A stretch of 64,000 nt of DNA from a bacterium. Its GTDB lineage: Bacteria; Verrucomicrobiota; Kiritimatiellia; CAIKKV01; CAITUY01. Location: the NCBI GenBank assembly GCA_037134355.1, contig JBAXMJ010000001.1, forward strand, positions 16,951 through 80,950, in the 5' to 3' direction. How positions within the stretch are numbered: position 1 is the first letter of the stretch; each line of letters begins with the position of its first letter. Below are positions 10,927 through 29,157 of this stretch, piece by piece. The translations under genes were made by a program, and so were the position numbers. Below the pieces are notes generated by a model. It was not told where the DNA came from. It was given only the letters and a program-made list of their open reading frames with translations, and ran no database searches.

Positions 10927-12086
10927 CAGGTTTTTTTCACGAAGGGGGAAATGGCTCTCAATTTGGCTATAATGGGAGGAAGACTCTTCAGGGTATACTC
11001 GATCTCTTCGGCTGTCGTGAACCGGCTCAGACTGAACCGTACCGAACCATGAACCGCAGTGAAGGGCACACCCATGGCGCGAAGCACATGCGAAGGCTCC
11101 AACGAACCCGAAGTGCAGGCCGACCCCGAGGAGGCCGCAATCCCGACATCACTCATCATATAGAGGATGGATTCACCCTCGATATATTCAAAACTGATGT
11201 TCAGAGTATTAGGAAGCCGGTTGACCCGGTCTCCATTGACCCGCGAATCCGGGCAGGTGGCCAGGAATCCGGCCTCAAGCCGGTCACGCAGGGCCGCTAT
11301 TACCGTCATCTCCCGACCGATTGACGCGCCGGCCAATTCCGCCGCCCGCCCCAATCCCACAATATAGGGCACATTCTCGGTACCCGCCCGACGACTGTCC
11401 TCCTGATGCCCCCCCAACATGAAGGGCTGAAGACGCGTCCCCTTGCGCACATACAATACGCCAATTCCCTTGGGCGCATGAATCTTGTGGCCGGAAAGGG
11501 AAAGCATATCGACCGGGATCTTGCGAACATCAATAGGCATCTTGCCCACCGCCTGCACGGCGTCAGTATGCATGACCCCGCCCGCGGCCTTCACCATGGC
11601 GGCGATTTCCGGTATCGGAAAAATCACACCCGTCTCATTGTTCGCCCACATCACGCTGACCACCGCAGGACCGTCCCGGAGCGCCTCACCCAATTGAACC
11701 ACATCCAACTGCCCCGCCGAATCCACGCCGATCTCGTGCAACCGGTGCCCCCGTTCTCCGAGATAGCGACACGGGCCCAGAACGGCAGGATGTTCCACCC
11801 GCGTGGTGATGATGTTATACCGTGGACCCAGAGCCTCGGCAGCACCCCGGATGGCCATGTTATCGCTCTCGGTTCCGCAACTGGTGAAAATAATTTCCGA
11901 GGGATCGGCATGAATCAGCTCAGCAACCTGACTCCGGGCCCGGTCAATGTGCTTTTTCACCTCCCCGCCAAACGCATGCATGCTGGAGGGATTCCCCCAC
12001 TGGTCATGCAAGAAAGGCATCATCGCCTCGATCACCTCGGGTGCCACGGCGCTGGTGGCGTTGTTATCCAGGTAGATGGTCTTCAT
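10926..12086 (-). CDS. nifS: Cysteine desulfurase NifS/IscS
   Basis: PLP-lysine region and 'SSGSACTSGSLEPSHVL' active-site loop. Confidence 0.85.
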   Translation of the reverse strand: MKTIYLDNNATSAVAPEVIEAMMPFLHDQWGNPSSMHAFGGEVKKHIDRARSQVAELIHADPSEIIFTSCGTESDNMAIRGAAEALGPRYNIITTRVEHPAVLGPCRYLGERGHRLHEIGVDSAGQLDVVQLGEALRDGPAVVSVMWANNETGVIFPIPEIAAMVKAAGGVMHTDAVQAVGKMPIDVRKIPVDMLSLSGHKIHAPKGIGVLYVRKGTRLQPFMLGGHQEDSRRAGTENVPYIVGLGRAAELAGASIGREMTVIAALRDRLEAGFLATCPDSRVNGDRVNRLPNTLNISFEYIEGESILYMMSDVGIAASSGSACTSGSLEPSHVLRAMGVPFTAVHGSVRFSLSRFTTAEEIEYTLKSLPPIIAKLRAISPFVKKT

Positions 12087-12937
12087 TCCCGAACCTCCTC
12101 CACCGTCAGTTCACTGGAAACAAACTCACGAAGCTTGACCTCCACCACATCCTTCAGGGTGAAATGGGCGACCTGACATCCAGCGCACATCCCACGCAGT
12201 GCGACCTTGACCCGGTTCCCATCGACATCAATCAGTTCGATATCCCCTCCGTCCCGCTTCAATAACGGACGGATTTCACGCTCGATCGTCTGTTCAATCA
12301 GCCGGATCTTTTCAATCACCGTCAGTTTCTTAGGTGCGGTTTTTGCTCCAGCCTTATGTTCGGCCTCCAGCCGTTCCACACGAGCTTTCTCCAGGATAGT
12401 CTCGATATCCGGTTTGCACTTCCCGCACCCGCCGCCCGCCTTCGTATAATTGGTCACCTGTTCCAGTGTCGAAAGGCCATTCTCACGAACCACCCGTTCG
12501 ATTTCCTCCGCGGTAACGCCAAAGCAATTGCACACCACCTTGCCGGCCAGAATTTTCTTCTCGGTCGATCCGCTCCTGTAATTCTCGATGGCCGCCTCAA
12601 GGGCCTCGCGCCCCATCACGGAACAGTGCATCTTCTGTTCGGGAAGCCCGCCCAGAAACTCAGCAATATCCTGATTGGTCACTTTTCCAGCTTCCTCTAC
12701 GGTCATGCCCTTGATCATCTCCGTCAACGCCGAGGATGAGGCAATAGCGCTGGCGCAGCCAAAGGTCTGAAACTTTACATCGGCAATCCGCCCGTCAGCG
12801 CCAAGCTTGAACATCAACCGCAGGGCATCCCCGCAGGCAAGTGAGCCCACTTCGCCGACTCCATCGGGTTTCTCAATCACGCCTACATTCCGGGGATTCC
12901 GGAAATGATCCATCACTTTTCCCGTATAGTCCCACAT
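12083..12937 (-). CDS. nifU: Fe-S cluster assembly scaffold NifU (three-domain)
   Basis: N-terminal IscU-like domain (three Cys), central BFD-like [2Fe-2S] domain (CNCFGVT), C-terminal Nfu CxxC domain. Confidence 0.85.
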   Translation of the reverse strand: MWDYTGKVMDHFRNPRNVGVIEKPDGVGEVGSLACGDALRLMFKLGADGRIADVKFQTFGCASAIASSSALTEMIKGMTVEEAGKVTNQDIAEFLGGLPEQKMHCSVMGREALEAAIENYRSGSTEKKILAGKVVCNCFGVTAEEIERVVRENGLSTLEQVTNYTKAGGGCGKCKPDIETILEKARVERLEAEHKAGAKTAPKKLTVIEKIRLIEQTIEREIRPLLKRDGGDIELIDVDGNRVKVALRGMCAGCQVAHFTLKDVVEVKLREFVSSELTVEEVRE

Positions 12938-13016
12938 AAATCATCATCCTTTCTTCTAGTAGAAACAATAGGTGTTATGAAGAGATCGGTCAAGGTTAAA
13001 TGCTACGCTATTGGTA

Positions 13017-14330
13017 TCATTTTGACGGAATCCCGTTCATTTCCTTGACAATTTTGCTGTGCTCCTTGCTGGCGGGATCAGGAAATTCCAGAATCGCCTT
13101 GTTATAGTAACTGCGTGCCTCCTCATATGACTGGCGCGCCTCAACGGGGTCCCCTGCCGAAGCCAGTAAGTCACCAATTCGTTTGGCATTCAGCCCCAGT
13201 ATCATTTCGCGGCTCACCCTGCACCCAGTCAGTGGATCCTGCTCGTCCCGATCCTGCTTTTTAATGAGACTCATGAAGTCACGGAAATATTTTACGGCCT
13301 CCCTGGGCTGCTTGTTCTTTAGGGCAAGATGGGCGTGGACTTTAGCAAGCATCTGCTGCCTCTGCTCCTCCCCGATTCCACCAGCCCCCTCCTGAATCAA
13401 TTTCAATGACGCCTCGAAGTCCTCCAGAAAATAACTGATATCCAGCATCATGCCCCGCAGCATCATCTTATCACTATCCAAGGTTAACCCTGTCTCCACA
13501 GTCCGGCACAGTGAAAACAAAGCCTGATAGGTGTCGCGATCATTGCAACCCAGCAGCACGGGATAGTATCCATTGATCAGCAGGATAATAACGCCCGGCT
13601 GGACTTTTCGGCGGTTGATCTCCTGCAACCGGTTTACCATCTCACGGGCAGATCCGTTCCGGGCCGCCATTCTCATCCATCCATCGGCGGCAGCCTCGCG
13701 GGTCAGCGTATATCCGGACGGGGACTCCAGTGCTGCGGAATACAGGGTATCGCCAGCCGAGTGATCCCCCTCCTTGAAGGCAGCCTCGCCAACGATCCTC
13801 ACGTTACGGGAAACGCCCTCATCCGGCACCTCAGATATAAGCGTTAGCAATTCGACCAAAGCGCCCTTGTACCCATCACGGGCCATCAGAAGGTCAATTC
13901 TCCCATTCGCCAGGAGGATGCGAGTGGCATGCGAATCCTTGAACTTCGCTTTTACGATGCCCAATACCTGCTCAACAGCCGTCCACTGCTTCCTCTGAAT
14001 CAGCATCGTTTCGATTGCGTTCACAATAGGAGCAACCACATCAGGAGTCTCACCGGCCGCAGCTCCGAACCGGGCCAAGGCGGCATCCATCCGGTTCGCC
14101 CCCATCTCAAGCTGAAGCATCTCCCATAATAGTATGGCTCGATTATTCATATAATGTCGACTGGTGTAATAGGAAGACAGCTTGGATAAGGCGGCATCCA
14201 CCTGCCCAGCCATAGCCATTCTCCGAGCCTCGCCCACAACACCAGCAAGATCCTGCCCGGCTTTGGGTCCGCACGATACCGTCAGAAGCATAGCGCTTAT
14301 CAAACATACACCTATTAACATCCGGGTCAT
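13017..14330 (-). CDS. Hypothetical lipoprotein with TPR-like helical repeats
   Basis: Signal plus lipobox 'LLTVSC'; alpha-helical repeat composition. Confidence 0.45.
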   Translation of the reverse strand: MTRMLIGVCLISAMLLTVSCGPKAGQDLAGVVGEARRMAMAGQVDAALSKLSSYYTSRHYMNNRAILLWEMLQLEMGANRMDAALARFGAAAGETPDVVAPIVNAIETMLIQRKQWTAVEQVLGIVKAKFKDSHATRILLANGRIDLLMARDGYKGALVELLTLISEVPDEGVSRNVRIVGEAAFKEGDHSAGDTLYSAALESPSGYTLTREAAADGWMRMAARNGSAREMVNRLQEINRRKVQPGVIILLINGYYPVLLGCNDRDTYQALFSLCRTVETGLTLDSDKMMLRGMMLDISYFLEDFEASLKLIQEGAGGIGEEQRQQMLAKVHAHLALKNKQPREAVKYFRDFMSLIKKQDRDEQDPLTGCRVSREMILGLNAKRIGDLLASAGDPVEARQSYEEARSYYNKAILEFPDPASKEHSKIVKEMNGIPSK

Positions 14331-17753: not shown

Positions 17754-18614
17754 ATGAAAACCGCTTCCTTCCCCCAAGATATCACAGAAATCGGCATTCT
17801 AGCTGGAAAGGGTGACTACCCGATCCAACTCGCCCAATCAGCCCGGGCACAGGGGGTAAAGAAAATCTTCGTGATCGCCTTCCGGCATGAAACCGATCGC
17901 GCTATCACCCGCTATGCCGATGAAGTTCAATGGCTTTATCTCGGCCAGTTCGGAGCCGTTCGCGATGCCTTTCAGTCACGGGGCATCAAAGTGGCCGTCA
18001 TGGCAGGCCAGATCACCCCGACTCACCTCTTCAGCCTTCGTTTCGACAAATTCACGCTGGATCTTCTCTCCCGATTGAAACAACGTAACGCGCACACCAT
18101 TTACGGAACCGCCTGTGATGAACTGAAGGCTGTTGGTGTTGAATTGCTCCCCGCCTGTCTGTTCATGGAAAACGCCATGCCCGAGGCGGGCTTGATCGGT
18201 GGACGCCCGCCAACGGAATCAGAAATGGCCGACATCCGGTTCGGCCTTGATGTGGCCAAAATCACCAGCGGTATTGATATCGGGCAAACCGTGGTGGTCA
18301 AGGGTGGAACTATCCTCGCTGTGGAAGCTTATGAGGGAACCGATGACACCATTCTCAGGGCCGGTCGCCTCGTCAAAGGAGGCGGCGCTATCGTCGTCAA
18401 GGTCGCTAAGAAAGGCCATGACATGCGGTTCGATATCCCGATTGTCGGAATGCGTACCATGAAGATTCTGCGCAAAAGCAAAACCGCCGTCCTGGCGGTA
18501 GAAGCCAAGCGCACCATTCTTCTGGATCGCGTCAAACTGATTGCCGAAGCCAACCGGCTGGGAATCTGTCTCATTGCCATGAACACCGAGGACTCCACCG
18601 CGGGGGCTTCATGA
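17754..18614 (+). CDS. lpxI: UDP-2,3-diacylglucosamine diphosphatase LpxI (DUF1009)
   Basis: LpxI-like N-terminus 'IGILAGKGDYP', 'DIGQTVVVKGGTILAVEAYEGTDDTILR'; located upstream of lpxB. Confidence 0.7.
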   Translation: MKTASFPQDITEIGILAGKGDYPIQLAQSARAQGVKKIFVIAFRHETDRAITRYADEVQWLYLGQFGAVRDAFQSRGIKVAVMAGQITPTHLFSLRFDKFTLDLLSRLKQRNAHTIYGTACDELKAVGVELLPACLFMENAMPEAGLIGGRPPTESEMADIRFGLDVAKITSGIDIGQTVVVKGGTILAVEAYEGTDDTILRAGRLVKGGGAIVVKVAKKGHDMRFDIPIVGMRTMKILRKSKTAVLAVEAKRTILLDRVKLIAEANRLGICLIAMNTEDSTAGAS

Positions 18615-19759
18615 GCCGTCCCCGCGAACTGCTCGTCATTGCCGGCGAAATTTCCGGTGACATGCACGCCGCCGGATTGATCCAGGAACTCAAAAAGCTT
18701 GATCCTTCCATCCAGTATTACGGAATCGGGGGCCCTCGACTCAGAGCTGAAGGAGTTGAAACTTTTCATGATGTCCGCGAGATGGGAGTGATGGGCTTTG
18801 TGGAAGTTCTGAAGCGTATTGTATTTTTCAGGCGCGTCTTCCAGGAAATGGAAGCCCTGGCCCGGAACCGGAAGCCTGATGCGGTGCTCCTTGTTGACTA
18901 TCCGGGATTCAACCTCCGATTTGCCGCCAGCGCCCATGCCATGGGGATCAAGGTGATCTATTACATCTGTCCCCAGGTTTGGGCCTGGAACCGCGGACGC
19001 ATCCCGAAAATGGCGGCCGTGGTGGATCGCTTGATGGCCATTTTCCCGTTTGAGCCGAAAGTCTTCGAGAGAACAACTCTGAAGGTTGATTTCGTGGGTC
19101 ATCCCCTGGTCACCGAGATTCAGGAAATACTTCACGCCCCCCTCACGTCGTTGCCTTGGCAAGGGGATCCGAAAATTGGAATGCTTCCCGGAAGCCGTCA
19201 CACTGAAATCGACCGCATGTTGCCTGCGTTCTGTGCTGCGGCAAAACGTGTGGAGCAACACTTTCCAAACGCCTCATTCATTATTCCTGCCCCCACCCCC
19301 GAAATTGAAACCCATATCCGGAAACTCCTGAAATCGTTGCGGGAGGTTCCCCGCCACATCTCAATCGTACAGGGTGAAGCCAGGCAAGTTTTCCGGCAAA
19401 GTCGGGCGGCCTTGGTAAAATCGGGAACTGCCACCATGGAATCCGCCCTGGCCGGATGTCCCACGGTCATCGCCTACATCGTCTCTCCAATCACCTGCTG
19501 GATCGGCCGGAAGCTGGCCACCGTCAAGTTCATGGGAATCGTGAACATCATCGCCAACCGGCGGATATGTCCTGAGTTCCTTCAGGAACAAGCCGCACCG
19601 GAAGCCCTCGCCGAGGCTCTGATCCCGCTGCTGACGGACACCCCGGAGCGTGCGGCTATGCTGAAGGGCTATGATGAGGTTCGCGAAATGCTCGGCAATG
19701 GCGGAGCCGCTGAGCGCGCGGCCCGAGTCGTCCATGAAGAACTCGCCTGTTGCCCCTGA
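18611..19759 (+). CDS. lpxB: Lipid-A-disaccharide synthase
   Basis: 'LVIAGEISGDMHAAGLI' N-terminus, GT19. Confidence 0.85.
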   Translation: MSRPRELLVIAGEISGDMHAAGLIQELKKLDPSIQYYGIGGPRLRAEGVETFHDVREMGVMGFVEVLKRIVFFRRVFQEMEALARNRKPDAVLLVDYPGFNLRFAASAHAMGIKVIYYICPQVWAWNRGRIPKMAAVVDRLMAIFPFEPKVFERTTLKVDFVGHPLVTEIQEILHAPLTSLPWQGDPKIGMLPGSRHTEIDRMLPAFCAAAKRVEQHFPNASFIIPAPTPEIETHIRKLLKSLREVPRHISIVQGEARQVFRQSRAALVKSGTATMESALAGCPTVIAYIVSPITCWIGRKLATVKFMGIVNIIANRRICPEFLQEQAAPEALAEALIPLLTDTPERAAMLKGYDEVREMLGNGGAAERAARVVHEELACCP

Positions 19760-19762
19760 TTA

Positions 19763-20431
19763 TCAGGCTTGCCAGATCTCAATTGAAATCGCATTACGCA
19801 GCGCCAAGCCAGCCACAACCTGAGCCGGAGACTCGATCAGCTGCGTGACAATGGCTTTCTTTTCAGGACCCGCAACCAGGATGACCAACCGTTCTACCCG
19901 GCGCAACAGTTCGGGCGTAACCGAGATACGGTCCGGTTTAGGTTCATGGGGAACCGCCACCGCATAGAGGTTTTCGCCCCTGGCCACATCCTCAGGAGTG
20001 AACAGAGACGCTGTATGGCCATCCGCCCCGAGCCCCAGCAGCCCAAACGTGATACGTCCATTGCCATTCATGAAACGGCGAAGCTCCTCGTGATACCGGG
20101 TGGACGCAGCCTGCCACGCCAGCTCTGTGTGGACCCGGAACACCCGCGATTCAGGAAGGCTCAATTGCTTCAGAAGAGGAATGGTTGCGCCGTAATTGCT
20201 GTCGGTCGAGCCGGCGGGCACATATCGCTCGTCGGAGTAAAGTAGCCGTACCGAGTCCGAGGCCTTTCTTTGCCGCCGGCACAGTTCCTGGTAGACCCGA
20301 ACCGGGGTTGTTCCCCCGGAGAGCATGACGGCAACGGGTCCTGTCTCCATAAGATGGCGTTCCAGATGATCAGCCGTTTCCTGCGCCAAGGCCTCCGCCG
20401 AGGCAAAATGCCGGAGCGTGTACCGGGTCAC
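19763..20431 (-). CDS. pgl: 6-phosphogluconolactonase
   Basis: 'VMLSGGTTP' motif; overlaps the zwf stop. Confidence 0.8.
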   Translation of the reverse strand: MTRYTLRHFASAEALAQETADHLERHLMETGPVAVMLSGGTTPVRVYQELCRRQRKASDSVRLLYSDERYVPAGSTDSNYGATIPLLKQLSLPESRVFRVHTELAWQAASTRYHEELRRFMNGNGRITFGLLGLGADGHTASLFTPEDVARGENLYAVAVPHEPKPDRISVTPELLRRVERLVILVAGPEKKAIVTQLIESPAQVVAGLALRNAISIEIWQA

Positions 20432-21906
20432 GATGACTTCCCCTGCTGAAACCCGTATCGCCGGGCCAGCCTGCGCCCCGCTTCAGGGCCGGCGCTTCCA
20501 TAGGGATAGGACTCGGGGACGGTTTTCCGGGATTCGAGCTCGTGAAGGACGGGAGTGAAAATATCCCAGGCCGCCGCCAACTCGTCGGCCCTTATGAAAA
20601 GGTTGCGATCCCCCTCTATCACATCAAGCAGGAGGCATTCATAGGCATCTGGAATCAACACATTAAACGCCGACTGGTAGCGAAGGTTGAGTTCGGTCCG
20701 GGCGAGTTCCAACCCCAGCCCCGGAACCTTATTCATGATCTTGAGTGTGATCGCCTCATCCGGCTGAATGCGGATCACCAACTCATTGGCCTCCACCCGC
20801 GCCTGCTGCCCTCCCCACAACTCACTTGGAACCTCATGAAACCGGATCCGGACCTCGTTGATACGTTCATCCAGCGCCTTACCAGCCTCAATCAGGAAAG
20901 GCACCCCTTCCCAGCGGGGATTATTGATTTTCAGGAGGGCGGCGGCATAAGTGGGCGACAGGGAACCGGGAGGAACCATAGGCTCCGCCGCATAGGCGGA
21001 TTGTCGTCCGGATTCCGAAGCGCCATACTGGCCGACCACAAGGTCGTCCAGAGACAACGGCTGGATCGCCTTGAGTAACTGTACCTTGGCGTCGCGAATT
21101 GCCCCCGCATCAAACTTCACGGGTCGTTCCATTGCCAGGAGCGACAGGATCTGCAACAAGTGATTCTGCATCACGTCCCGGATAATCCCGAACCCGTCAA
21201 AATAGCCCCCGCGCGGCCCCACACCAACCGGCTCGGCCCATTTAATGTGAACACTGTGGATCGTCCTCCGGTTCCAAAGCGGCTCGAAAATGAGATTGGC
21301 AAACCTTAGAACCAGGAGATTCTGGACAATTTCCTTTCCGAGATAATGATCGATCCGATAGGTCATGTCCTCGGTAAAAACCTTCTGCATTTCCTGAATC
21401 AGGATATCGGAGCTCTGCCGATCCCGCCCAAAAGGTTTCTCAATGACAATCCGGGACCATTCATCACGGTCTCCGCAGGCCACCAGCCCCGAATCACCCA
21501 ACGCCTGAGCCACATCCATAAAGACAGAAGGAGGAATGGCCATGTAAAAAATCCGGTTCACCGGCCCGTCGCCTTCCAGTTCGTGCATAAGTTGGAAGAG
21601 GTCCAGGAACGAGTCTGGCGAGGAATACTGCCCCTGGCAATAATAGCACCGGTTCAGAAACGCTTCCGTCCTGTCGGCGCAAGACGCTACTTCCGGGGTA
21701 TACCGGCAGGTTAGGTTTTCCGCGATCTTCCGGCGAAACCCCACGTGATCAAAATCGCTTCGGGCCAAACCGTAAAGATGAAAGTCTGCAGGAAGGTAAC
21801 CCTGGCAAAAAAGCGAAAATAGCGCGGGAATCACTTTCCTCTGGGCGAGATCTCCTGAGGCCCCGACCACAACGATCCCGAGCTTGTTTTTCAGGCTCAT
21901 GAGCAT
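20428..21906 (-). CDS. zwf: Glucose-6-phosphate 1-dehydrogenase
   Basis: 'VVGASGDLAQRK' NADP motif, 'DHYLGKE' active site. Confidence 0.9.
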   Translation of the reverse strand: MLMSLKNKLGIVVVGASGDLAQRKVIPALFSLFCQGYLPADFHLYGLARSDFDHVGFRRKIAENLTCRYTPEVASCADRTEAFLNRCYYCQGQYSSPDSFLDLFQLMHELEGDGPVNRIFYMAIPPSVFMDVAQALGDSGLVACGDRDEWSRIVIEKPFGRDRQSSDILIQEMQKVFTEDMTYRIDHYLGKEIVQNLLVLRFANLIFEPLWNRRTIHSVHIKWAEPVGVGPRGGYFDGFGIIRDVMQNHLLQILSLLAMERPVKFDAGAIRDAKVQLLKAIQPLSLDDLVVGQYGASESGRQSAYAAEPMVPPGSLSPTYAAALLKINNPRWEGVPFLIEAGKALDERINEVRIRFHEVPSELWGGQQARVEANELVIRIQPDEAITLKIMNKVPGLGLELARTELNLRYQSAFNVLIPDAYECLLLDVIEGDRNLFIRADELAAAWDIFTPVLHELESRKTVPESYPYGSAGPEAGRRLARRYGFQQGKSS

Positions 21907-22052
21907 ATTCCTTCAGGTTCCCCGACAACTCTTGCATCGGGCATCCGAACACCACTGACACATCCGGCAATCCGTACAGGGATGCTTTTTATCCCGGCAT
22001 TTCCCCTTTTTCAACTTCCCTGTCCCGAGGCAAGGCTTTGTCCCCTTATCTC

Positions 22053-23720
22053 TCATGGCCGGGTTGCCTCCCGCGTTGGCTTGAGAACGACATAGGAGGG
22101 AAGTCCCCTGACACCAAAAGTCTCAAGTGCTTCGCGGGTTGCCGGATCCGTCGACTTTTCCGCTTGGAATTTGACAACCAGATAATGGGAAAGACGTCCC
22201 TTCACCTTGGCATCCTTAAAGGTCGTCAACTCCATTGCCTCGCAATTTTTGCACCAGGTCGCCCAGAAATCTATTAAGACCGGCTTCCCGGATCCCGCCG
22301 ATTCGCGAAGAATATCCGTCCACCGGTCATGATCCGATGCGGTGATTTGATAAACGCCCACACCGGCCTGTTGAGACACCTGTGCTCCCCGCAAACCCTG
22401 ATAGGCCAGGGAAAAATAATACACCGCAAACAACAGGATGAACACACCGAACCCTTTCTTGATCCAAGTCATCCAATTACCCGGTTTGGGAAGAAAGGTG
22501 AGCCCGGCGCCCGCCAACGGCCAGGGCAAGGCCATCCCAAGCCCCAAAATAAAGGGAAGCGCTAACCCGATCCCGGCCCCATGGGAATACAGATTGCCGG
22601 ACAGCAACAGCACCGCAATCACCACGGGGGCCACACAGGCACCGGCAAGAAGGGCGGCCACCCCGCCCATGATGAAGGCGGCAGCCACCCGGCCCTGCCC
22701 TGGACTCCCCGACCCGGTTCCAACACTCTGGAATCGGGTAAAATCAATCGTGAAGACATCAAACATTGCCAGGGCCAACGCCACAAAGATGATCCCAATT
22801 ACCCCATTGAACCACGGCATCGAATTGAGTGCCCCGAACTGGGAGCCGGTCAACACAACCACAAGACCCAATACTCCATACACGAGGGCAATTCCGAGAC
22901 CATAACACGAACCCAACAGCAGTCCCCGCGCGCGAGTGCTGTTCTGCGCCCCAACCCCCAGAATAGCGAGATTGATCGGAATCATTGGCAAAACACAGGG
23001 GGTAAGATTCAAGAGGAGTCCCCCAATGACAATCAAAAGAATAGTCCACCAAGCCCCATGAATCTTCAAGAACTCGACGGGGTTAATTCCGAAAAGAAGA
23101 AAGCCAGCCTTGATCCTGGACGCCCACGTCGTCCGCCCCGGTATTCCAGAAACATCCTTTCCCTCGGCACGATCCAGAAATACCAGGAAGTCAGAAGCGC
23201 CCATATAACCGGAAGCTCGCGCTGAAATGACCGGGGTTCCCGTCATTCCTATCCAGCCGGAAGTGCGTTCGGCGATGCGTTCCCCGCCCCCCTTTACTAT
23301 CGCTTCAGCCGGTTCCAAGCCCACAGTCCGGAGTGTGTAAAAAAGGGTTTTCGGGAAAAAGCATTCCTGTTCATTGCAGCCCTGATATGAAAATTTCACT
23401 ACCGAACGCCCGGGAGTCGGAACTCCGGCATTGTAGATCAATTTGACATCCCGACTGAACGCAGGTCGTTCGGAATCACTCAAGGAATCATGGATCGTAA
23501 CAGGACTATCCCCGCCCACTTGGCGTAAACGAGCACCCCCCTCCAGACTGGCCTCAACCTGATCGGCATATACGTGATGTCCCGAGGGAACCGAAACTGA
23601 AACCGATACCAGAACATTTGAACCCTCAGTAGCTTGGCTAAACGCAATACGAAAAGGATCCGCCGCATACGCTGAAACGACACCCGCCAAGGCCAACAGC
23701 CCTATGATTAGCTTTTTCAT
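22053..23720 (-). CDS. dsbD: Thiol:disulfide interchange protein DsbD-like (TM core plus C-terminal thioredoxin domain)
   Basis: Signal peptide, multiple TM helices with Cys, C-terminal 'WATWCKNC'. Confidence 0.75.
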   Translation of the reverse strand: MKKLIIGLLALAGVVSAYAADPFRIAFSQATEGSNVLVSVSVSVPSGHHVYADQVEASLEGGARLRQVGGDSPVTIHDSLSDSERPAFSRDVKLIYNAGVPTPGRSVVKFSYQGCNEQECFFPKTLFYTLRTVGLEPAEAIVKGGGERIAERTSGWIGMTGTPVISARASGYMGASDFLVFLDRAEGKDVSGIPGRTTWASRIKAGFLLFGINPVEFLKIHGAWWTILLIVIGGLLLNLTPCVLPMIPINLAILGVGAQNSTRARGLLLGSCYGLGIALVYGVLGLVVVLTGSQFGALNSMPWFNGVIGIIFVALALAMFDVFTIDFTRFQSVGTGSGSPGQGRVAAAFIMGGVAALLAGACVAPVVIAVLLLSGNLYSHGAGIGLALPFILGLGMALPWPLAGAGLTFLPKPGNWMTWIKKGFGVFILLFAVYYFSLAYQGLRGAQVSQQAGVGVYQITASDHDRWTDILRESAGSGKPVLIDFWATWCKNCEAMELTTFKDAKVKGRLSHYLVVKFQAEKSTDPATREALETFGVRGLPSYVVLKPTREATRP

Positions 23721-24073
23721 GCTGCGGACCGCTTCGGCCAATTTTTGACGAGGTTCACCACTTCCAGAACATAGGCGCACTCACATTGGGCCGGACAGGG
23801 AGCAAGATTGCTTTGATGCAGGCATTGCCCCGAACATTTAGCAGAGCCTTCACGCCGCTCCTGAAAGATTGTTCCGTTGTAGAGATCGAGAAATTCCGCG
23901 GCCTGAATCGACATTGTTGTAAAACATTTATTCTCAAGGTGATTAAAGAGAAAAAAACCTTCCCTTAAATGCTCGAAATTGACTTGATAGCCAACAATAC
24001 TGATGTTTGGATCCCCCAGAAAATCCTCCCTGGTCTTCCACGAAAACCCACATGTGCAATCTCGAAAATTCAT
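23717..24073 (-). CDS. Hypothetical Cys-rich protein
   Basis: About 118 aa from MNFRDCTCGF...; several CxxC-like pairs (CSGQC, CPAQCEC). Sits between the ferritin and dsbD genes. Confidence 0.35.
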   Translation of the reverse strand: MNFRDCTCGFSWKTREDFLGDPNISIVGYQVNFEHLREGFFLFNHLENKCFTTMSIQAAEFLDLYNGTIFQERREGSAKCSGQCLHQSNLAPCPAQCECAYVLEVVNLVKNWPKRSAA

Positions 24074-24146
24074 TATCTCGCTCCTGCCCCTAAAAACAGT
24101 GCGGGCGGCCGGGGCCGCCCACACCGCCCCCATCATTCCGCGACGT

Positions 24147-24659
24147 TTATGACGCGGCTCCCCGCTTCCCCAACTGCTTATCAATCATCAACAGCGTCCC
24201 CGTTGAACTTCCCGCCATCCGAAGCATCGAGAGAATATCGATATCATTCGATTCTTCTTCAATCTGTTCTGTGATGTACCATTGCACCAGTGACTGGGTG
24301 GCATAATCCTTCCCAGCCACGGCAACATCCATCAGTTCGTTCAATGACTTCGTGATGAACTGCTCATGCTTGAGCGTAGACTCATACATCTCAAGGAGAG
24401 ACTTCCACGTCCACTTCGGCTTTTTGATCTCATTCAAGGTAACTCCCGCCCCCTGACTCTGGAGATAATCATAAAACTTCAGGGCGTGCCCCTGTTCCTC
24501 CTGGAACTGAACGCGAAACCACTTTCCTGCCCCCTTATAACCCTTAGCGGTCGCATCGGCGGACATCGCGAGGTACAAATAAGCTGAATAGAGTTCCCGG
24601 TTGAGCTGCTCGTTAATTGCCTTTTCAATTTTTTTAGTGATCATTGTCAGACCTTCCAT
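24147..24659 (-). CDS. ftnA: Non-heme bacterial ferritin
   Basis: Ferritin diiron ligand pattern 'ELYSAYLYLAMS...EEQGHALKF...QWYITEQIEEE'. Confidence 0.8.
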   Translation of the reverse strand: MEGLTMITKKIEKAINEQLNRELYSAYLYLAMSADATAKGYKGAGKWFRVQFQEEQGHALKFYDYLQSQGAGVTLNEIKKPKWTWKSLLEMYESTLKHEQFITKSLNELMDVAVAGKDYATQSLVQWYITEQIEEESNDIDILSMLRMAGSSTGTLLMIDKQLGKRGAAS

Positions 24660-25024
24660 AAACCATGCAGATTACAAAACTCGCGTACAACTACTGTCGT
24701 AGCCTTGACGCCCTCAAAAACGGCAATGGCAGGCTGCCCGGGCTTCAAATACTGGCGCAACACGGTGTCACCAGCAATCAATTCAATCCACTCTATGAAA
24801 TGCTTCTCTTCCATCGGATGCGGCACGCTGCCTACAGTCACCTTGAACCCGTTGGTCAGGCGCTCCACCACAGGAATATGCTTCTCCTTAGAGGCATCCA
24901 CAGTGTTTTCCGAAAGTCGCTTCATCTCAGCCCCGCAACACACCAGTGTGCCGCCAGAAGCGTGCACCACTTCAACAATATTGCCGCATACTTCGCACTT
25001 ATAAATTTCCGACCTGTTTGTCAT
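24647..25024 (-). CDS. dfx: Desulfoferrodoxin (2Fe superoxide reductase)
   Basis: N-terminal desulforedoxin 'CEVCGNIVEV...LVCCG' plus center-II domain with His and Cys ligands. Confidence 0.85.
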   Translation of the reverse strand: MTNRSEIYKCEVCGNIVEVVHASGGTLVCCGAEMKRLSENTVDASKEKHIPVVERLTNGFKVTVGSVPHPMEEKHFIEWIELIAGDTVLRQYLKPGQPAIAVFEGVKATTVVVREFCNLHGLWKV

Positions 25025-25061
25025 GCCCTTACTCCTTAATTATTGCTTTACCAACGCCCCG

Positions 25062-25217
25062 TCACTGGGGAGAAAAATCATCCTTGCCCACACCACAGTC
25101 CGGACAGGCCCAATCCGCCGGGATATCTTCAAACGAAGTTCCCGGCGCGATTCCATGGTCCGGATCACCTATTTTCGGATCGTATACATATCCACACACA
25201 TTACACACAAACTTCAT
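25062..25217 (-). CDS. rub: Rubredoxin (51 aa); not in the ORF track because it is shorter than 60 aa
   Basis: My own translation: [51 protein letters not shown], with canonical CxxCG...CPxCG pairs. Confidence 0.85.
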
Positions 25218-25255
25218 TCCCGCATCCTCCACCATTATTTATTCGTTTATCCGTG

Positions 25256-25711
25256 CTATTTTTTCCCGACCAAAGATTTTACATGTTTGACATACGCCTC
25301 AGCCCCACCAGGCATATACCCGGTCCGGGCCAATTCTTTTCCCTGCCCATTCAGGAGTAGAACCGTCGGAAACCCCTGAACATCAAACTTCTCAGCCAGC
25401 AGGTCGTTCTGCTTTTTGACATCCTCCGGAAGTTTTGATTTCCGGGGAAAATCTACCAGAAGCAACACAAGATCAGTCTTGGCGTAGGCCTTAAACTCTT
25501 CTTTTGAAAACACTTCCTTGTCCAGTTTGATACACCATCCACACCAGTCTGACCCCGAGAAATCAACCAGGATGGGAACTTGTCGCTTAACGGCTTCCGT
25601 CTTGGCCGCCTCCAGAGACGTCAACCACCCGTCACCACCCGCCAGTGATGGAACAGTCAACGCGCAGATCAACGCCACACCCGAAACAAATCCATTAACC
25701 TTCATTGTCAT
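25256..25711 (-). CDS. Secreted thioredoxin-family protein
   Basis: Signal peptide plus 'WCGWC' active site. Confidence 0.75.
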   Translation of the reverse strand: MTMKVNGFVSGVALICALTVPSLAGGDGWLTSLEAAKTEAVKRQVPILVDFSGSDWCGWCIKLDKEVFSKEEFKAYAKTDLVLLLVDFPRKSKLPEDVKKQNDLLAEKFDVQGFPTVLLLNGQGKELARTGYMPGGAEAYVKHVKSLVGKK

Positions 25712-25716
25712 ACTCC

Positions 25717-25929
25717 TTAATTAAACCTTTTTTGAGGCCTTGCCAAATGGGCTGCAAACTCACGCTCCGCTTCAGCCCGTATACGGTATCCACAATCCTT
25801 CGCCAAGCCAAATAACCCGACACAATTTTCGTCTACGCACTCGGCGTGACCGGTATCAGCCACCTCAATGAGATTGGCCGCAACATCGAGTAACCGCCTC
25901 ACATTTTTATTATTATCATGCATTCTCAT
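25717..25929 (-). CDS. Small hypothetical Cys-containing protein; first gene after the sigma-54 promoter
   Basis: 70 aa; GGAG RBS 6 nt upstream; 'HAECVDENC..C'. Confidence 0.35.
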   Translation of the reverse strand: MRMHDNNKNVRRLLDVAANLIEVADTGHAECVDENCVGLFGLAKDCGYRIRAEAEREFAAHLARPQKRFN

Positions 25930-25959
25930 CTCCGTTATAAGCCGTGCTAGTTACCTCAG

Positions 25960-25975
25960 TGCAAGAGTTGTGCCA
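25960..25975 (-). promoter_or_regulatory. Sigma-54 (RpoN) -24/-12 promoter: minus strand reads TGGCACaactcTTGCA
   Basis: Perfect match to TGGCAC-N5-TTGCW, about 30 nt upstream of the 25929 ORF and 128 nt downstream of the bEBP gene on the same strand. Confidence 0.7.
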
Positions 25976-26102
25976 GAACGAATAAAAGACTTCTTAAAAA
26001 TCCATAACCTGCACGGAGAAAACAGGTTGTGAGTTTATCGGTCCGTTTTGGATCCCACAGTCGAGTGTCTCACAGTGTCGCCTGGCTGTATCAGGAGACG
26101 AC

Positions 26103-27866
26103 TTATCCGTTCTCATCAAGAAAACGGTAGAGGGTGGCGCGAGACACACCTAACAACTTGGCGGCCTCAACCTTATTGCCGCCTGCCTGCAAAATGGCGG
26201 CTTCAATACTCTCACGAGTCAGGCGTTGACGTCCCCGCATCGGAGGCGGAGCGGGCCGCTCGGGAGGTGGCGGTGTTTTCGCAAGTGCCATCGGATTCAG
26301 GGCAATCGGCGGCAAATGATCGCGCTGGATTACTCCACCCTTGCATTTGATCAGTGCAAATTGGATCCAGTTCTGAAGTTCCCGGACATTGCCGGGCCAA
26401 TTATAATCCAACATGAAGTCAATGGCGTCTGGTGAAAAACTAATAGTCTTCCCTACAGCCAATTGCTTTAAAAAGTGATTGGCCAGCAGGGGAATGTCGA
26501 GCCGCCGTTCCCGGAGAGGTGGCACCACCAAGGGGACTACGCTCAAACGGTAAAACAAGTCTTCCCGGAATTTTCCCGCCGCCATTTCCTTCTGGAGGTT
26601 TCGATGGGTCGCACTCACTACCCGGACGTTCACTTTGATGGTTTGTTCGCCCCCCACCCTTTCAAAAGACCCTTCCTGCAAAACGCGCAGCAATTTAACC
26701 TGCATAGCCGGCGAAATATCACCGATTTCATCCAGAAAAATGGTGCCGCCGTCAGCGAGCTCGAAACGCCCCTTCTTGTCACGGATCGCGCCGGTAAACG
26801 CCCCCTTGACGTGCCCGAACAGCTCGCTCTCCAGCAATCCTTCTGGAAGCGCACCGCAATTCACGGGCACAAACATTTTTCCGGCACGTGGCCCCTCGTT
26901 GTGAAGCGCTGCGGCAACCAGCTCTTTTCCTGTTCCGCTTTCTCCCTGGATGAGCACTGAAGCGGAGGATTCCGCAAGCTCGGGAATCAGGTCATACAAG
27001 GCCAGCATTTTAGGATCACGCCCCACAATTCCCGCAAACTGCTCAATGACGCCCAACCGGCGCGCCAATTGCAGCTCCCGTGTGACATCCCGGAAACAGG
27101 CCAGAACGCCGACATTTTTTCCTGCCAGGTCGGCCATGCTATTGACCGTCATGGAAATCCTGCGGTGCTCGCCGCTGGCGGTTACAATTTCAACCTCCTT
27201 GTTCAGAGCGTCCTTCGGGGGCTCACCCCCGTTACAAAACAAACACTTAGCCCCGCATAAGCCCCCGGGAATGACCTTATGGCAATCCCGGTTCAGAAGA
27301 GACTCACGCGAATAACCAGTTATTTTCTCGGCGGCGGCATTGAAATAAAAAACGCGGCGATTGAGGTCATGCGCAATCACCCCGTCTGACATACTCTCAA
27401 GAACCTGATCCCCCGTGCGCTTTGATTGCAGAAACGCATCCAGGTATCCCCGCTCATAAAAGTCATCCACCAATCTCCGGATCGTCTCACACCACCGCCG
27501 CAAGGAGTCCAACACCGCAGCCTGATCCTCGGCACGATCCGAAAAATCATCCAGAGTCCAGTGCAACTGAAGAGGATTACCCGGTAATACGGCGCAGGGC
27601 CCATCCGCCGCGTTGCACAAGGAAACCGCGACATCAAAAACAGTATTGCCCATCTGGCTCGGGATTCCGCCATCCCGTTCCTCGGGAACCACGCGAAATT
27701 CAGACAGCACGCGCCACGCCAGAGGGGAAACCCGCCCTGAGGAGATCCCGGCATAGTGAACCACCACGTCTGCACGGCCTCTTGCCCGGGCAAAAGCCGC
27801 CGCGATCGCGCTGACGGTGGCGTCTTTCCCTCCAACAAAAATCAATTGATTGATCGGTTTAGCCAT
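26103..27866 (-). CDS. Sigma-54-dependent Fis-family transcriptional activator (bEBP) with a degenerate ArsC/LMW-PTP-like N-domain and a Cys-rich PAS domain
   Basis: AAA+ 'GESGTGKE', exact 'GAFTGA' sigma-54 contact motif, C-terminal Fis HTH. N-terminal domain aligns to thioredoxin-coupled ArsC with the P-loop replaced ('VGGKDATVS') but the Cys pair 'CNAADGPC' retained. PAS domain carries 'CHKVIPGGLCGAKCLFC'. Confidence 0.8.
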   Translation of the reverse strand: MAKPINQLIFVGGKDATVSAIAAAFARARGRADVVVHYAGISSGRVSPLAWRVLSEFRVVPEERDGGIPSQMGNTVFDVAVSLCNAADGPCAVLPGNPLQLHWTLDDFSDRAEDQAAVLDSLRRWCETIRRLVDDFYERGYLDAFLQSKRTGDQVLESMSDGVIAHDLNRRVFYFNAAAEKITGYSRESLLNRDCHKVIPGGLCGAKCLFCNGGEPPKDALNKEVEIVTASGEHRRISMTVNSMADLAGKNVGVLACFRDVTRELQLARRLGVIEQFAGIVGRDPKMLALYDLIPELAESSASVLIQGESGTGKELVAAALHNEGPRAGKMFVPVNCGALPEGLLESELFGHVKGAFTGAIRDKKGRFELADGGTIFLDEIGDISPAMQVKLLRVLQEGSFERVGGEQTIKVNVRVVSATHRNLQKEMAAGKFREDLFYRLSVVPLVVPPLRERRLDIPLLANHFLKQLAVGKTISFSPDAIDFMLDYNWPGNVRELQNWIQFALIKCKGGVIQRDHLPPIALNPMALAKTPPPPERPAPPPMRGRQRLTRESIEAAILQAGGNKVEAAKLLGVSRATLYRFLDENG

Positions 27867-27867
27867 A

Positions 27868-29157
27868 TCATGAATCCAAATACCCGCGCTTCACGGCATC
27901 CCGGATCATATTTTCAGCGAATTCCCACAATACACGGGACCCTTCCTCAACATGCCGGTTACGCTCCAGCACCTGTCCGCTACGAACCCCGTGCTTTTTC
28001 CACACCACTCCTGCCGTTCCGAAATTATGCATCAGAGGCTGAACCCGATCCAACGCCGCGGCAAATTTTGCCTCAGGGGTCTCACGAGCCTCGAATTCCG
28101 CCCAGATCGACATCAGATCCTGCCCCTGTTCATCCGGCAAAAGCCCAAACAAACGTTTTGCAGCAACCTGTTCACGAGCCACTTTATCACGGTTTCCAAT
28201 CTCGTCATAACAATAGGTGTCGCCGGCATCGATTTCCACGATGTCATGAACCAGAACCATCCTGATCACCCGTGCCAAATCCAGCCGGGGCTCATTCGCG
28301 TGTTCACACAGCAACACGGCCATAACCGCCAGATGCCAGGAATGTTCCGCATCATTCTCATAGCGGCTCCCGTCCAGCAACAGGGTGCGCCGTAATACGG
28401 ACTTCAATTTATCAATTTCCCGGATGAAATCCCACTGCTTTGCCAGACGACTCACCCCTGGTAATGGTTGCCCCCCATCCTGTCGTCGGGGTTCAGAAAT
28501 CCTGGCTCCGGGTCTTGCCTGTTCCACCCACTTCACGATTCGCTCGGCCACCTCGCGCTTGGACATCACCGGAAAGGGAATTGCCGGAGCGTCAGCCGTG
28601 ATAAACATCACCCGGTTGGTATCGACATCGAATCCTGCGTCGGGCTGGCTGACATCATTGGCGACGATCATATCCAGCCTTTTGGTCGTCACCTTGCGTC
28701 GCGCTTCGGCTTCTACATCAGTCGTCTCCGCTGCGAATCCCACAACCGTCCGGCTCCCTTTCCGGGGCTTCAGGGCCATCAGGATATCCGTTGTGGGCTC
28801 AAGCGTGAGCGTGGAGGACGCCTGGCGTTTTTTTACCTTCAGGCGGCTTACCTCTACCGGTCGCCAGTCGGCGACGGCAGCCGCCATCACCAGGGCATCA
28901 CAAGACTCGAAGTGGGTCGACACGGCGTCCAGCATCTCGGCGGCGGAGACCACGGACACCACGCGAATTCCCGCCGGGGCCGATAGGGAAACAGGACCGG
29001 AAATGAGAACCACCTCGTGCCCCCGATCGCGGGCCGAAACGGCAATGGCGTAGCCCATCTTTCCGGAAGAGCGATTACTGAGGAATCGAACGGGATCCAT
29101 GAACTCGCGAGTCGGCCCTGCTGTGATGAGAAAACGCATGCCGCTACCTTGCGTCAA
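27868..29157 (-). CDS. coaB: Fusion protein: phosphopantothenate-cysteine ligase (CoaB) N-domain plus HD-domain (YfbR-like 5'-deoxynucleotidase, HD_3) C-domain
   Basis: 'LITAGPTREFMDPVRFLSNRSSGKMG...AAAVADWRP' is CoaB. The C-terminal 'ENDAEHSWHLAVMAVLL...VLVHDIVEIDAGDT' is an HD metal-binding domain. Confidence 0.6.
   Translation of the reverse strand: MTQGSGMRFLITAGPTREFMDPVRFLSNRSSGKMGYAIAVSARDRGHEVVLISGPVSLSAPAGIRVVSVVSAAEMLDAVSTHFESCDALVMAAAVADWRPVEVSRLKVKKRQASSTLTLEPTTDILMALKPRKGSRTVVGFAAETTDVEAEARRKVTTKRLDMIVANDVSQPDAGFDVDTNRVMFITADAPAIPFPVMSKREVAERIVKWVEQARPGARISEPRRQDGGQPLPGVSRLAKQWDFIREIDKLKSVLRRTLLLDGSRYENDAEHSWHLAVMAVLLCEHANEPRLDLARVIRMVLVHDIVEIDAGDTYCYDEIGNRDKVAREQVAAKRLFGLLPDEQGQDLMSIWAEFEARETPEAKFAAALDRVQPLMHNFGTAGVVWKKHGVRSGQVLERNRHVEEGSRVLWEFAENMIRDAVKRGYLDS

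Follow-up and report, generated by a model that had tools for sequence, protein, structure and literature searches.

A stretch of 64,000 nucleotides from a bacterium of the Kiritimatiellia (contig JBAXMJ010000001.1 of assembly GCA_037134355.1, positions 16,951 to 80,950), here called the window, carries on its minus strand a predicted sigma-54 promoter. The gene of a bacterial enhancer-binding protein (bEBP) lies upstream of the promoter and a compact row of genes for superoxide, iron and thiol defence lies downstream of it. A reading made from the letters alone, the sequence-only reading, had proposed that this bEBP is a redox sensor and that the row is a seven-gene oxygen-detoxification and thiol-redox cluster under its control. 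Comparison with related loci supports a sigma-54 promoter served by the adjacent bEBP, probably in front of a ten-gene operon, and the promoter, the half-sites ahead of it and the gene order are found again in several phyla. The features are collected in Table 1.

Table 1. Features of the activator gene, the promoter region and the downstream genes, numbered from the first nucleotide of the window (aa, amino acids; nt, nucleotides; UAS, upstream activating sequence)
Feature	Position	Strand	Basis or remark
bEBP, 587 aa: ArsC/LMW-PTP-like N-domain, Cys3 PAS, AAA+, Fis-type helix-turn-helix (HTH)	27866-26103	minus	Pfam domains
ArsC/LMW-phosphatase-like N-domain of the bEBP, aa 1-140, catalytically degenerate	27866-27447	minus	phmmer against PDB
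PAS cysteine motif D194-C195-H196...C204-G205...C208..C211 (C-x8-C-x3-C)	27284-27234	minus	alignments of the family
Distal candidate UAS half-site TGATACA	26093-26087	minus	119 nt upstream of the -24 GG; conserved in relatives
Proximal candidate UAS half-site TGAGACA	26072-26066	minus	98 nt upstream of the -24 GG; conserved in relatives
Inverted repeat AACCTG-N11-CAGGTT	26028-26006	minus	between half-sites and promoter; family form TAAC-N17-GTTA
Sigma-54 -24/-12 promoter TGGCACAACTCTTGCA	25975-25960	minus	consensus match and orthologous elements; transcription start predicted near 25950
sm70, small 3-Cys protein, 68 aa, first gene	25923-25717	minus	conserved helical hairpin
Secreted WCGWC thioredoxin, DsbH-like, 149 aa, signal peptide	25705-25256	minus	Pfam Thioredoxin_7, Thioredoxin_2, Thioredox_DsbH
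Rubredoxin, 51 aa from second ATG	25217-25062	minus	Pfam Rubredoxin 2e-24
Desulfoferrodoxin, 2Fe superoxide reductase, 125 aa	25024-24647	minus	PF06397 Desulfoferrod_N 6e-18 and PF01880 Desulfoferrodox 3e-19
Ferritin, 165 aa	24644-24147	minus	Pfam Ferritin 1.5e-36
Cys118, Cys-rich protein, 118 aa	24073-23717	minus	conserved before dsbD in relatives
DsbD, thiol:disulfide electron transporter, 555 aa	23720-22053	minus	PF11412 DsbD_N, PF02683 DsbD_TM 3e-40, PF13899 Thioredoxin_7
sm47, Cys-rich open reading frame (9 Cys), 47 aa, uncalled	22056-21913	minus	ATGA overlap with dsbD stop
zwf, glucose-6-phosphate dehydrogenase, 490 aa	21900-20428	minus	starts 12 nt past sm47; probable operon member
pgl, 6-phosphogluconolactonase, 222 aa, last gene	20431-19763	minus	4-nt overlap with zwf; Pfam Glucosamine_iso

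The promoter, its activator and the downstream genes

The promoter element is an exact match to TGGCAC-N5-TTGCW, with GG at -24, GC at -12 and ten bases between the two dinucleotides. It is the single match in the 64 kb, even with one mismatch permitted, and the exact pattern appears in none of 100 dinucleotide-preserving shuffles, which bears out the exact RpoN consensus that the sequence-only reading had placed here. The element is intergenic, 128 nt downstream of the bEBP gene, and its 3' end is 37 nt before the start of sm70. No sigma-70-like promoter was seen on the minus strand between 28500 and 21500, and the gap between the bEBP gene and sm70 contains no terminator-like site. A hairpin at about 26100-26075, considered as a terminator or structured RNA, was rejected, being no better than its shuffles (z = 0.38). 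A search of 19000-29000 against Rfam found no family; the one sub-threshold match, to the rpsB small RNA on the plus strand at 21680-21786, antisense within zwf (26 bits against a gathering cutoff of 40, E 0.07), is probably due to chance.

The product of the upstream gene has the domains of a sigma-54 activator: Sigma54_activat (PF00158, E 1e-70), AAA_lid_14, PAS (1e-10) and HTH_8 (PF02954). The Walker A motif is GESGTGKE and the GAFTGA loop is encoded at 26804-26787, so that the adjacent, same-strand activator gene with its diagnostic loop, as reported earlier, is confirmed. An AlphaFold model of the whole protein, of moderate confidence (predicted local distance difference test score, pLDDT, 71), agrees with this domain order. 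The bEBP gene starts 2 nt past the preceding gene, coaB-HD, and is therefore probably co-transcribed with thyA-coaB. The coaB-HD gene itself (27868-29157, minus strand) encodes a CoaB-type DFP C-terminal domain fused to an HD_3/YfbR-like phosphohydrolase domain, with no CoaC half detected. It follows thyA, and the synteny of thyA, coaB-HD and the bEBP gene is kept in Kiritimatiellia-type relatives.

The PAS domain contains the putative sensor. A genome scan with an alignment of this domain gave 462 relatives, of which 80 loci were fetched for comparison. C195, H196, C204 and C208 are invariant in both protein alignments (A1 and A2), and each of the 83 bEBPs in the fetched loci has the C-x8-C-x3-C spacing, commonly with a fourth cysteine three residues further on. 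The loop of these proteins is GAFTGA or GAFSGA. Two residues past the first PAS cysteine most family members have aspartate or glutamate (DCH[E/D]), and the window protein has K197. The sequence-only reading had called the bEBP a redox sensor without arguing the point; the label is now backed by the cysteine signature, which is shared with the redox-sensing bEBP OrpR discussed below.

The N-terminal domain resembles arsenate reductases of the ArsC type (phmmer against PDB: 8p5n, E 2.8e-6; Staphylococcus aureus ArsC, 1jf8, E 4e-5). With the thioredoxin-coupled ArsC proteins of S. aureus pI258 and B. subtilis, its homologues at E 3e-6 to 4e-5, it has in common the DD motif and a C-x6-C pair: C94-x6-C101 (vslCnaadgpCavlp) aligns with vtlCsdadnnCpilp of 1jf8, which we take to be the Cys82/Cys89 disulfide pair. 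Unlike them, it is fused to a transcription factor and has VGGKDATVS in place of the CX5R P-loop (CTGNTARS in 8p5n). Because the nucleophilic cysteine and the arginine of the loop are both absent, the domain, judged from its residues, cannot act as an arsenate reductase or phosphatase. Relatives in other phyla keep CX5R: six bEBPs from Lentisphaerota and Eisenbacteria (L018, L020, L022, L023, L025 and L027) have both a CxxNSCRS P-loop and the C-x6-C pair intact, which suggests a working thiol-relay sensor fused to an Fe-S PAS domain. Some close Kiritimatiellia relatives lack even the C-x6-C pair. Since the full cysteine set is kept in several Lentisphaerota and Eisenbacteria relatives, the ancestral bEBP probably had both a thiol-based module and the PAS centre. 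In the clade of the window the N-domain would be a degenerate remnant and the PAS motif the conserved sensor.

The genes downstream of the promoter are closely packed. The gaps from sm70 to pgl are, in order, 11, 38, 37, 2, 73, -4, -4, 12 and -4 nt, with three ATGA overlaps, and lpxB follows pgl on the opposite strand, convergent with it. Because of these tight gaps and overlaps, and of the absence of a sigma-70-like promoter or a convincing terminator on the strand (scanned from 28500 to 21500), 25923-19763 is probably one operon of ten genes and about 6.2 kb. All seven genes of the originally proposed cluster are present, from the small Cys protein, thioredoxin and rubredoxin to desulfoferrodoxin, ferritin, the Cys-rich protein and DsbD, and an independent gene call gives them too; the row does not end at 22053, however, but goes on through sm47, zwf and pgl. 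The gene calls, made on a 100 %-identical public contig, fix the likely starts, from the 68 aa of sm70 to the 222 aa of pgl. They also include the 51-aa rubredoxin, which had been recognized as a reading frame missing from the supplied track.

Several of the products deserve comment. The WCGWC thioredoxin matches the NCBIfam DsbH family at E 1e-35, under the family cutoff. The desulfoferrodoxin has both the N-terminal desulforedoxin-like domain and the superoxide reductase (SOR) catalytic domain. Cys118 has no Pfam or NCBIfam match, and its 53 homologues are all named hypothetical. There is likewise no family match for sm47, the C-terminal motif of which, KKHxCPDCxMCQWCSDxRCxxC, is kept between dsbD and zwf in six relatives (L004, L009, L011, L014, L015 and L017); zwf follows dsbD on the same strand in many.

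The lead protein, sm70, has no Pfam, NCBIfam or PDB sequence match. Clustered at 90 % identity, its homologues make up at least 1161 groups; every one of these is named hypothetical, and none has a domain known to Pfam. An AlphaFold2 model predicts a two-helix hairpin (pLDDT 88.5), for which Foldseek against PDB gave no significant fold match, encapsulated-ferritin-like hairpins appearing at E > 2 only. The invariant residues, A24, G27, D33, C36, L39, G41, D45, A54, E55, E57 and H61, appear in our reading of the model to line helix 2 as a stripe. The gene sits behind a sigma-54-like promoter in most loci inspected and seems to be the most faithfully linked target of that promoter. Since sm70 is the obligatory first product of the promoter, it might be conjectured to be a feedback or partner protein of the activator, or else a metal-handling protein.

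Recurrence of the arrangement in other phyla

The sensory half of the bEBP has few close relatives among proteins. Of the loci from the genome scan, the nearest are in freshwater metagenome-assembled genomes (MAGs) labelled Verrucomicrobiota or Kiritimatiellia, and others are in Lentisphaerota/Victivallales, Eisenbacteria and many Thermodesulfobacteriota. Searches by tblastn with the window proteins found the order thyA, coaB-HD, bEBP, sm70, (thioredoxin), rub, dfx, ftn, cys118, dsbD, sm47, zwf, pgl in about 12 Kiritimatiellia-type loci, while the pairing of the bEBP gene with a following sm70 reaches Lentisphaerota, Eisenbacteria and Thermodesulfobacteriota. Most of the paired loci have a -24/-12 element with at most two mismatches 25-110 nt before sm70, and the element is found in L027 too, where sm70 has moved 1 kb off. 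It starts about 47 nt ahead of the sm70 start codon in the Kiritimatiellia clade. Altogether, elements equivalent to the window promoter are present in more than 25 loci of several phyla. One Kiritimatiellia MAG has an insert of about 140 nt, rich in palindromes and resembling a small repeat element, between the promoter and sm70 (L015, about 11490-11650).

In the alignment of the intergenic regions the spacer has mostly diverged and four blocks are kept: the -24/-12 element, two 7-mers of the form TGA(T/G/C)ACA and an inverted repeat. Counted from the GG, the distal 7-mer lies at -116 to -122, where it is kept as TGAnACA in 12 loci of the Kiritimatiellia clade, and the proximal one at -94 to -99. 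The window contains 11 such 7-mers, which is near chance expectation, and the pair in Table 1 is the only one within 40 nt. Loci of Lentisphaerota, Eisenbacteria and Thermodesulfobacteriota have TGTCTCA near -124 and TGAGACA near -94, an inverted pair about 30 nt apart, with an extra TGTCTCA one helical turn off in some. A blind scan for a pair of half-sites followed by a promoter, over the fetched loci (L001-L088) and the window, returned 26 combinations from four or more phyla. In 16 of the 26, which come from Kiritimatiellia, Lentisphaerota, Eisenbacteria and Thermodesulfobacteriota, a proximal site in the orientation of the window stands 95-99 nt ahead of the GG, mostly as TGAGACA and twice as TGATACA; four others have as their last half-site a TGTnTCA about 125 nt ahead of the promoter. 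The candidate half-sites co-occur with the bEBP family; a cognate UAS would be expected 80-150 nt from the promoter, and the two of the window lie 98 and 119 nt from the GG. Such conservation at fixed helical phasing is what would be expected of a UAS for a co-inherited bEBP, which presumably binds there. The palindrome TGTGAG-N36-CTCACA, which the sequence-only reading had pointed to as a UAS, exists (26074-26069 and 26033-26028) but was rejected in that role; only its left arm, with TGAGACA, is conserved in relatives.

The fourth block, the inverted repeat TAAC-N17-GTTA, has its centre about 44 nt before the GG, and in some loci its arms are GCAAC and GTTGC (alignment of L004-L017). It could be a site for a bending protein of the IHF type or the operator of a second regulator; in the alignment it matches the IHF consensus WATCAANNNNTTR only in part.

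The linkage was also sampled independently from the side of sm70, with seven members on long contigs. A bEBP of LMWPc-PAS-Sigma54 architecture is encoded directly upstream in four of these and a PAS bEBP 5 kb upstream in one, and no bEBP was found within 6 kb in the remaining two. All seven lie in clusters for defence against oxygen, reactive oxygen species (ROS) or nitric oxide (NO), made up variously of dfx, rubredoxin, flavodiiron protein, rubrerythrin, AhpC-type peroxiredoxin, ferritin, hybrid cluster protein (hcp), cytochrome bd, DsbD/DsbH-like thioredoxins and zwf. A sigma-54-like promoter precedes sm70 or its operon in all seven, with a degenerate -12 in two, and TGTCTCA-type sites are present in six; the seventh, L085, has only the weaker TGAAACA/TGTATCA, about 300 nt upstream. 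Although the member genes vary, the predicted function of the regulon is consistent across lineages, and the arrangement appears to be widespread rather than confined to this genome.

Family members without sm70 have hcp as a neighbour more often than any other gene. The PAS-only bEBPs of Desulfosarcina (L063/L065, about 11390-13500) have it in convergent orientation, with genes for glutaredoxin and the ferredoxin-thioredoxin reductase beta subunit alongside. In L020 a second UAS and sigma-54 promoter stand ahead of hcp (region about 18200-20027), and in L084 (2673-6243) a UAS and promoter precede fer4-HD-hcp, with sm70 as the last gene, so that hcp and sm70 are co-operonic. In two Thermodesulfobacteriota loci FUR-family (PerR-like) genes lie just upstream of sm70-dfx (L085, 5196-5612; L086, 3898-4344), which hints at dual control by PerR and sigma-54 in some lineages.

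Comparative data of this kind indicate that the site at 25975-25960 is functional. Orthologous loci of several phyla share the -24/-12 element, the pair of half-sites ahead of it and the order of the genes, and this phylogenetic footprinting supports the earlier proposal that the sigma-54 promoter is genuine, that the adjacent bEBP serves it and that it drives an operon for oxygen detoxification and thiol redox.

Relation to known regulators

The closest characterised parallel is OrpR (DVU2106) of Desulfovibrio vulgaris Hildenborough, a sigma-54 bEBP with a redox-sensing PAS domain that carries a [4Fe-4S] cluster and the cysteines C52, C61 and C65 (PMC8359166). A low redox potential keeps OrpR active, and oxidation inactivates it. 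It works with IHF, and its homologues conserve an aspartate or glutamate two residues past the first cysteine; its regulon consists of the orp operons only, and OrpR itself is said to be restricted to orp-bearing deltaproteobacteria (PMC8359166). The window bEBP shares with OrpR the single-component PAS-AAA+-HTH build, the C-x8-C-x3-C spacing and a gene position beside its own sigma-54 target promoter, and most members of its family also share the acidic residue at +2. It differs in its loop, GAFTGA against GAFTDA, and in its extra ArsC-like N-domain. Its family has sm70 and oxygen-defence genes as predicted targets and TGAGACA/TGTCTCA as candidate UAS in place of GGGCGYRTTTTGCGCCC, and its hosts include phyla of the Planctomycetes-Verrucomicrobia-Chlamydiae group. 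Among 122 neighbouring open reading frames of the family members that lack sm70 there are no orp-like families. The PAS-only relatives in Desulfobacterales, considered as true OrpR orthologues on the strength of orp neighbours, were rejected as such; their neighbours are hcp, DUF2400 and others. The term OrpR-like is therefore used here of motif and architecture and not of orthology.

The principle that an iron-sensing bEBP controls a rubredoxin-linked detoxifier is known. In Escherichia coli the sigma-54 bEBP NorR activates the adjacent rubredoxin-linked detoxification operon norVW by means of an iron-based sensor, and in D. gigas a NorR-type bEBP, NorR1L, regulates roo. The window system resembles both in having a predicted iron sensor and a target operon of this kind next to the activator gene. 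NorR, however, senses NO through a mononuclear iron in a GAF domain and controls an NO or O2 reductase, whereas the window system has a Cys3 PAS domain and would control superoxide reductase, ferritin, DsbD/DsbH and zwf. The expectation that a sigma-54 activator would be unusual for such an operon accordingly holds, but it is not unheard of, as the NorR precedents make clear. In a full-text literature search no paper was found that connects dfx, rub or SOR with sigma-54 or a bEBP. In the paper on the sigma-54 regulome of D. vulgaris there is no mention of redox, ferritin, rubrerythrin or thioredoxin, and no oxidative-stress regulon is among those listed; in a cross-phylum sigma-54 survey of 2025 the only related mention is an enrichment of peroxiredoxin in Proteobacteria. 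The regulon itself appears to be new, as do its UAS, the domain architecture of the activator, the small protein at the head of the operon and the range of phyla in which the system is found.

The predicted output of the window operon is equivalent to that of the PerR/Fur and SoxR/OxyR regulons, which supply SOR and rubredoxin, iron storage, thiol reductants and, through zwf, NADPH. Those regulators are repressors or activators of sigma-70 promoters, whereas the window bEBP would be an ATP-dependent sigma-54 activator that acts from an upstream enhancer. A further likeness is to PspF and PspA, where the first gene of a sigma-54 operon encodes the partner of the activator: here, too, the bEBP gene adjoins a sigma-54 promoter the first product of which is a small helical protein. 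There is no sequence similarity or significant fold similarity between sm70 and PspA, and an interaction of sm70 with the bEBP by analogy to the Psp system is pure conjecture.

Proposed mechanism and alternatives

Based on these findings, we favour, with a probability of about 0.6, a redox-gated sigma-54 operon for superoxide, iron and thiol defence that is driven by the adjacent bEBP through the two half-sites. The promoter would drive all ten genes from sm70 to pgl as a single transcript. The bEBP, probably expressed constitutively with thyA-coaB, would be required for open complex formation; it would bind TGATACA and TGAGACA, reach the polymerase by looping of the DNA and remodel the closed complex. 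Its ATPase would be gated, as in OrpR, by a redox-labile metal or Fe-S centre on D194, C195, H196, C204 and C208 of the PAS domain, with the ArsC-like N-domain as an accessory module that has degenerated in this clade. To judge from the functions of their families, zwf and pgl would provide NADPH, rubredoxin would donate electrons to superoxide reductase, ferritin would withhold iron and so limit Fenton chemistry, and DsbD would hand electrons to the periplasmic DsbH-like reductase. Activation on oxidation of the sensor is favoured because the gene set resembles the inducible SoxRS, OxyR and PerR regulons.

Several observations weigh against this proposal. The 73-nt and 38-nt gaps may contain internal promoters, no open reading frame with an RpoN box was found within the 64-kb window, and read-through from the bEBP gene, with no terminator before sm70, could contribute basal transcription. 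The likeness to OrpR is one of motif spacing and domain architecture only. OrpR has a GAFTDA loop and orp neighbours, the window family GAFTGA or GAFSGA and no orp-like neighbours, and the window protein has K197 where OrpR homologues carry aspartate or glutamate. Finally, OrpR is on in the reduced state and is switched off by oxidation, the reverse of the polarity favoured here.

The same components with the polarity of OrpR are possible, though we consider this rather doubtful: the intact cluster would switch the operon on at low redox potential as pre-emptive anaerobic housekeeping, and oxidation would switch it off. OrpR is the sole characterised protein with the Cys3 PAS motif and works in that way, rubredoxin and desulfoferrodoxin are themselves iron proteins, and in some strict anaerobes the sor and rub genes are not known to be induced by O2. 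Such a switch, however, would remove the defence just when it is required, and zwf, ferritin and DsbD/DsbH, like the ahpC, rubrerythrin, flavodiiron protein and cytochrome bd genes of relatives, are typical of oxidant-induced regulons; many relatives, moreover, have an intact ArsC-like thiol module that OrpR lacks. It is unlikely that the sensed signal is NO or nitrosative stress, in a role like that of NorR, and not O2, ROS or redox potential. Fe-S clusters do react with NO, the D. gigas precedent concerns a NorR-type bEBP that regulates roo, flavodiiron proteins occur in several sm70 operons, and hcp is both the commonest neighbour of the members without sm70 and, in L020, preceded by a UAS and sigma-54 promoter of its own. 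The window operon nevertheless contains no hcp, flavodiiron protein or other NO-specific enzyme, and it centres on superoxide reductase, ferritin, the reduction of thiols and the supply of NADPH.

The reach of the promoter has to be considered as well. Control of sm70 only, with the detoxification genes transcribed mainly from internal sigma-70 promoters, for example under PerR, would account for the fact that sm70 alone is constantly beside the promoter while the downstream content differs by lineage, and it would fit the FUR-family genes that adjoin sm70-dfx in two Desulfobacterota loci and the two longer gaps, which could contain promoters. This is improbable in view of the three 4-nt overlaps and the gaps of 2-12 nt, an order conserved in a dozen relatives, the lack of a sigma-70-like site or convincing terminator between 28500 and 21500, and the position of sm70 in L084, where the UAS and promoter precede fer4-HD-hcp and sm70 comes last. 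That the -24/-12 match is fortuitous and that the cluster is read through from a thyA-coaB-bEBP transcript is scarcely credible. The absence of a terminator before sm70 and of rpoN in the window would agree with it, but the match is exact and without equal in 100 shuffles, and the element and its spacing to the half-sites are kept across phyla while the flanks diverge.

A broader interpretation, which we regard as speculative, is that the redox-gated operon belongs to an undescribed cross-phylum master regulon of strict anaerobes for oxygen, ROS and NO. Its hosts would be Kiritimatiellia, Lentisphaerota, Eisenbacteria and Thermodesulfobacteriota, its bEBP would be a dual sensor with an ArsC-like and an Fe-S PAS module, and sm70, with its conserved Asp/Cys/Glu/His face, would be a redox-active or metal-binding feedback partner. 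If this is true, the system is a sigma-54 counterpart of SoxR, OxyR or PerR. Oxygen sensing in strict anaerobes beyond the model clostridia and Desulfovibrio is largely unknown, and the carriers of the module are mostly uncultured lake and sediment bacteria. Under the favoured mechanism the Fe-S PAS chemistry of OrpR, the sole case known in bEBPs, would be linked to a very different output of ecological importance, in which superoxide reductase stands beside the storage of iron, the reduction of periplasmic thiols and the supply of NADPH. The analysis gives the regulon a compact signature: half-sites of the TGTCTCA/TGAGACA type lie about 97 nt ahead of a -24/-12 element, and sm70 comes next. 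The promoter, bEBP and UAS are compact enough for the redox switch to be reconstructed in E. coli. The conserved and unannotated proteins sm70, Cys118 and sm47 are candidate components of the oxidative-stress response.

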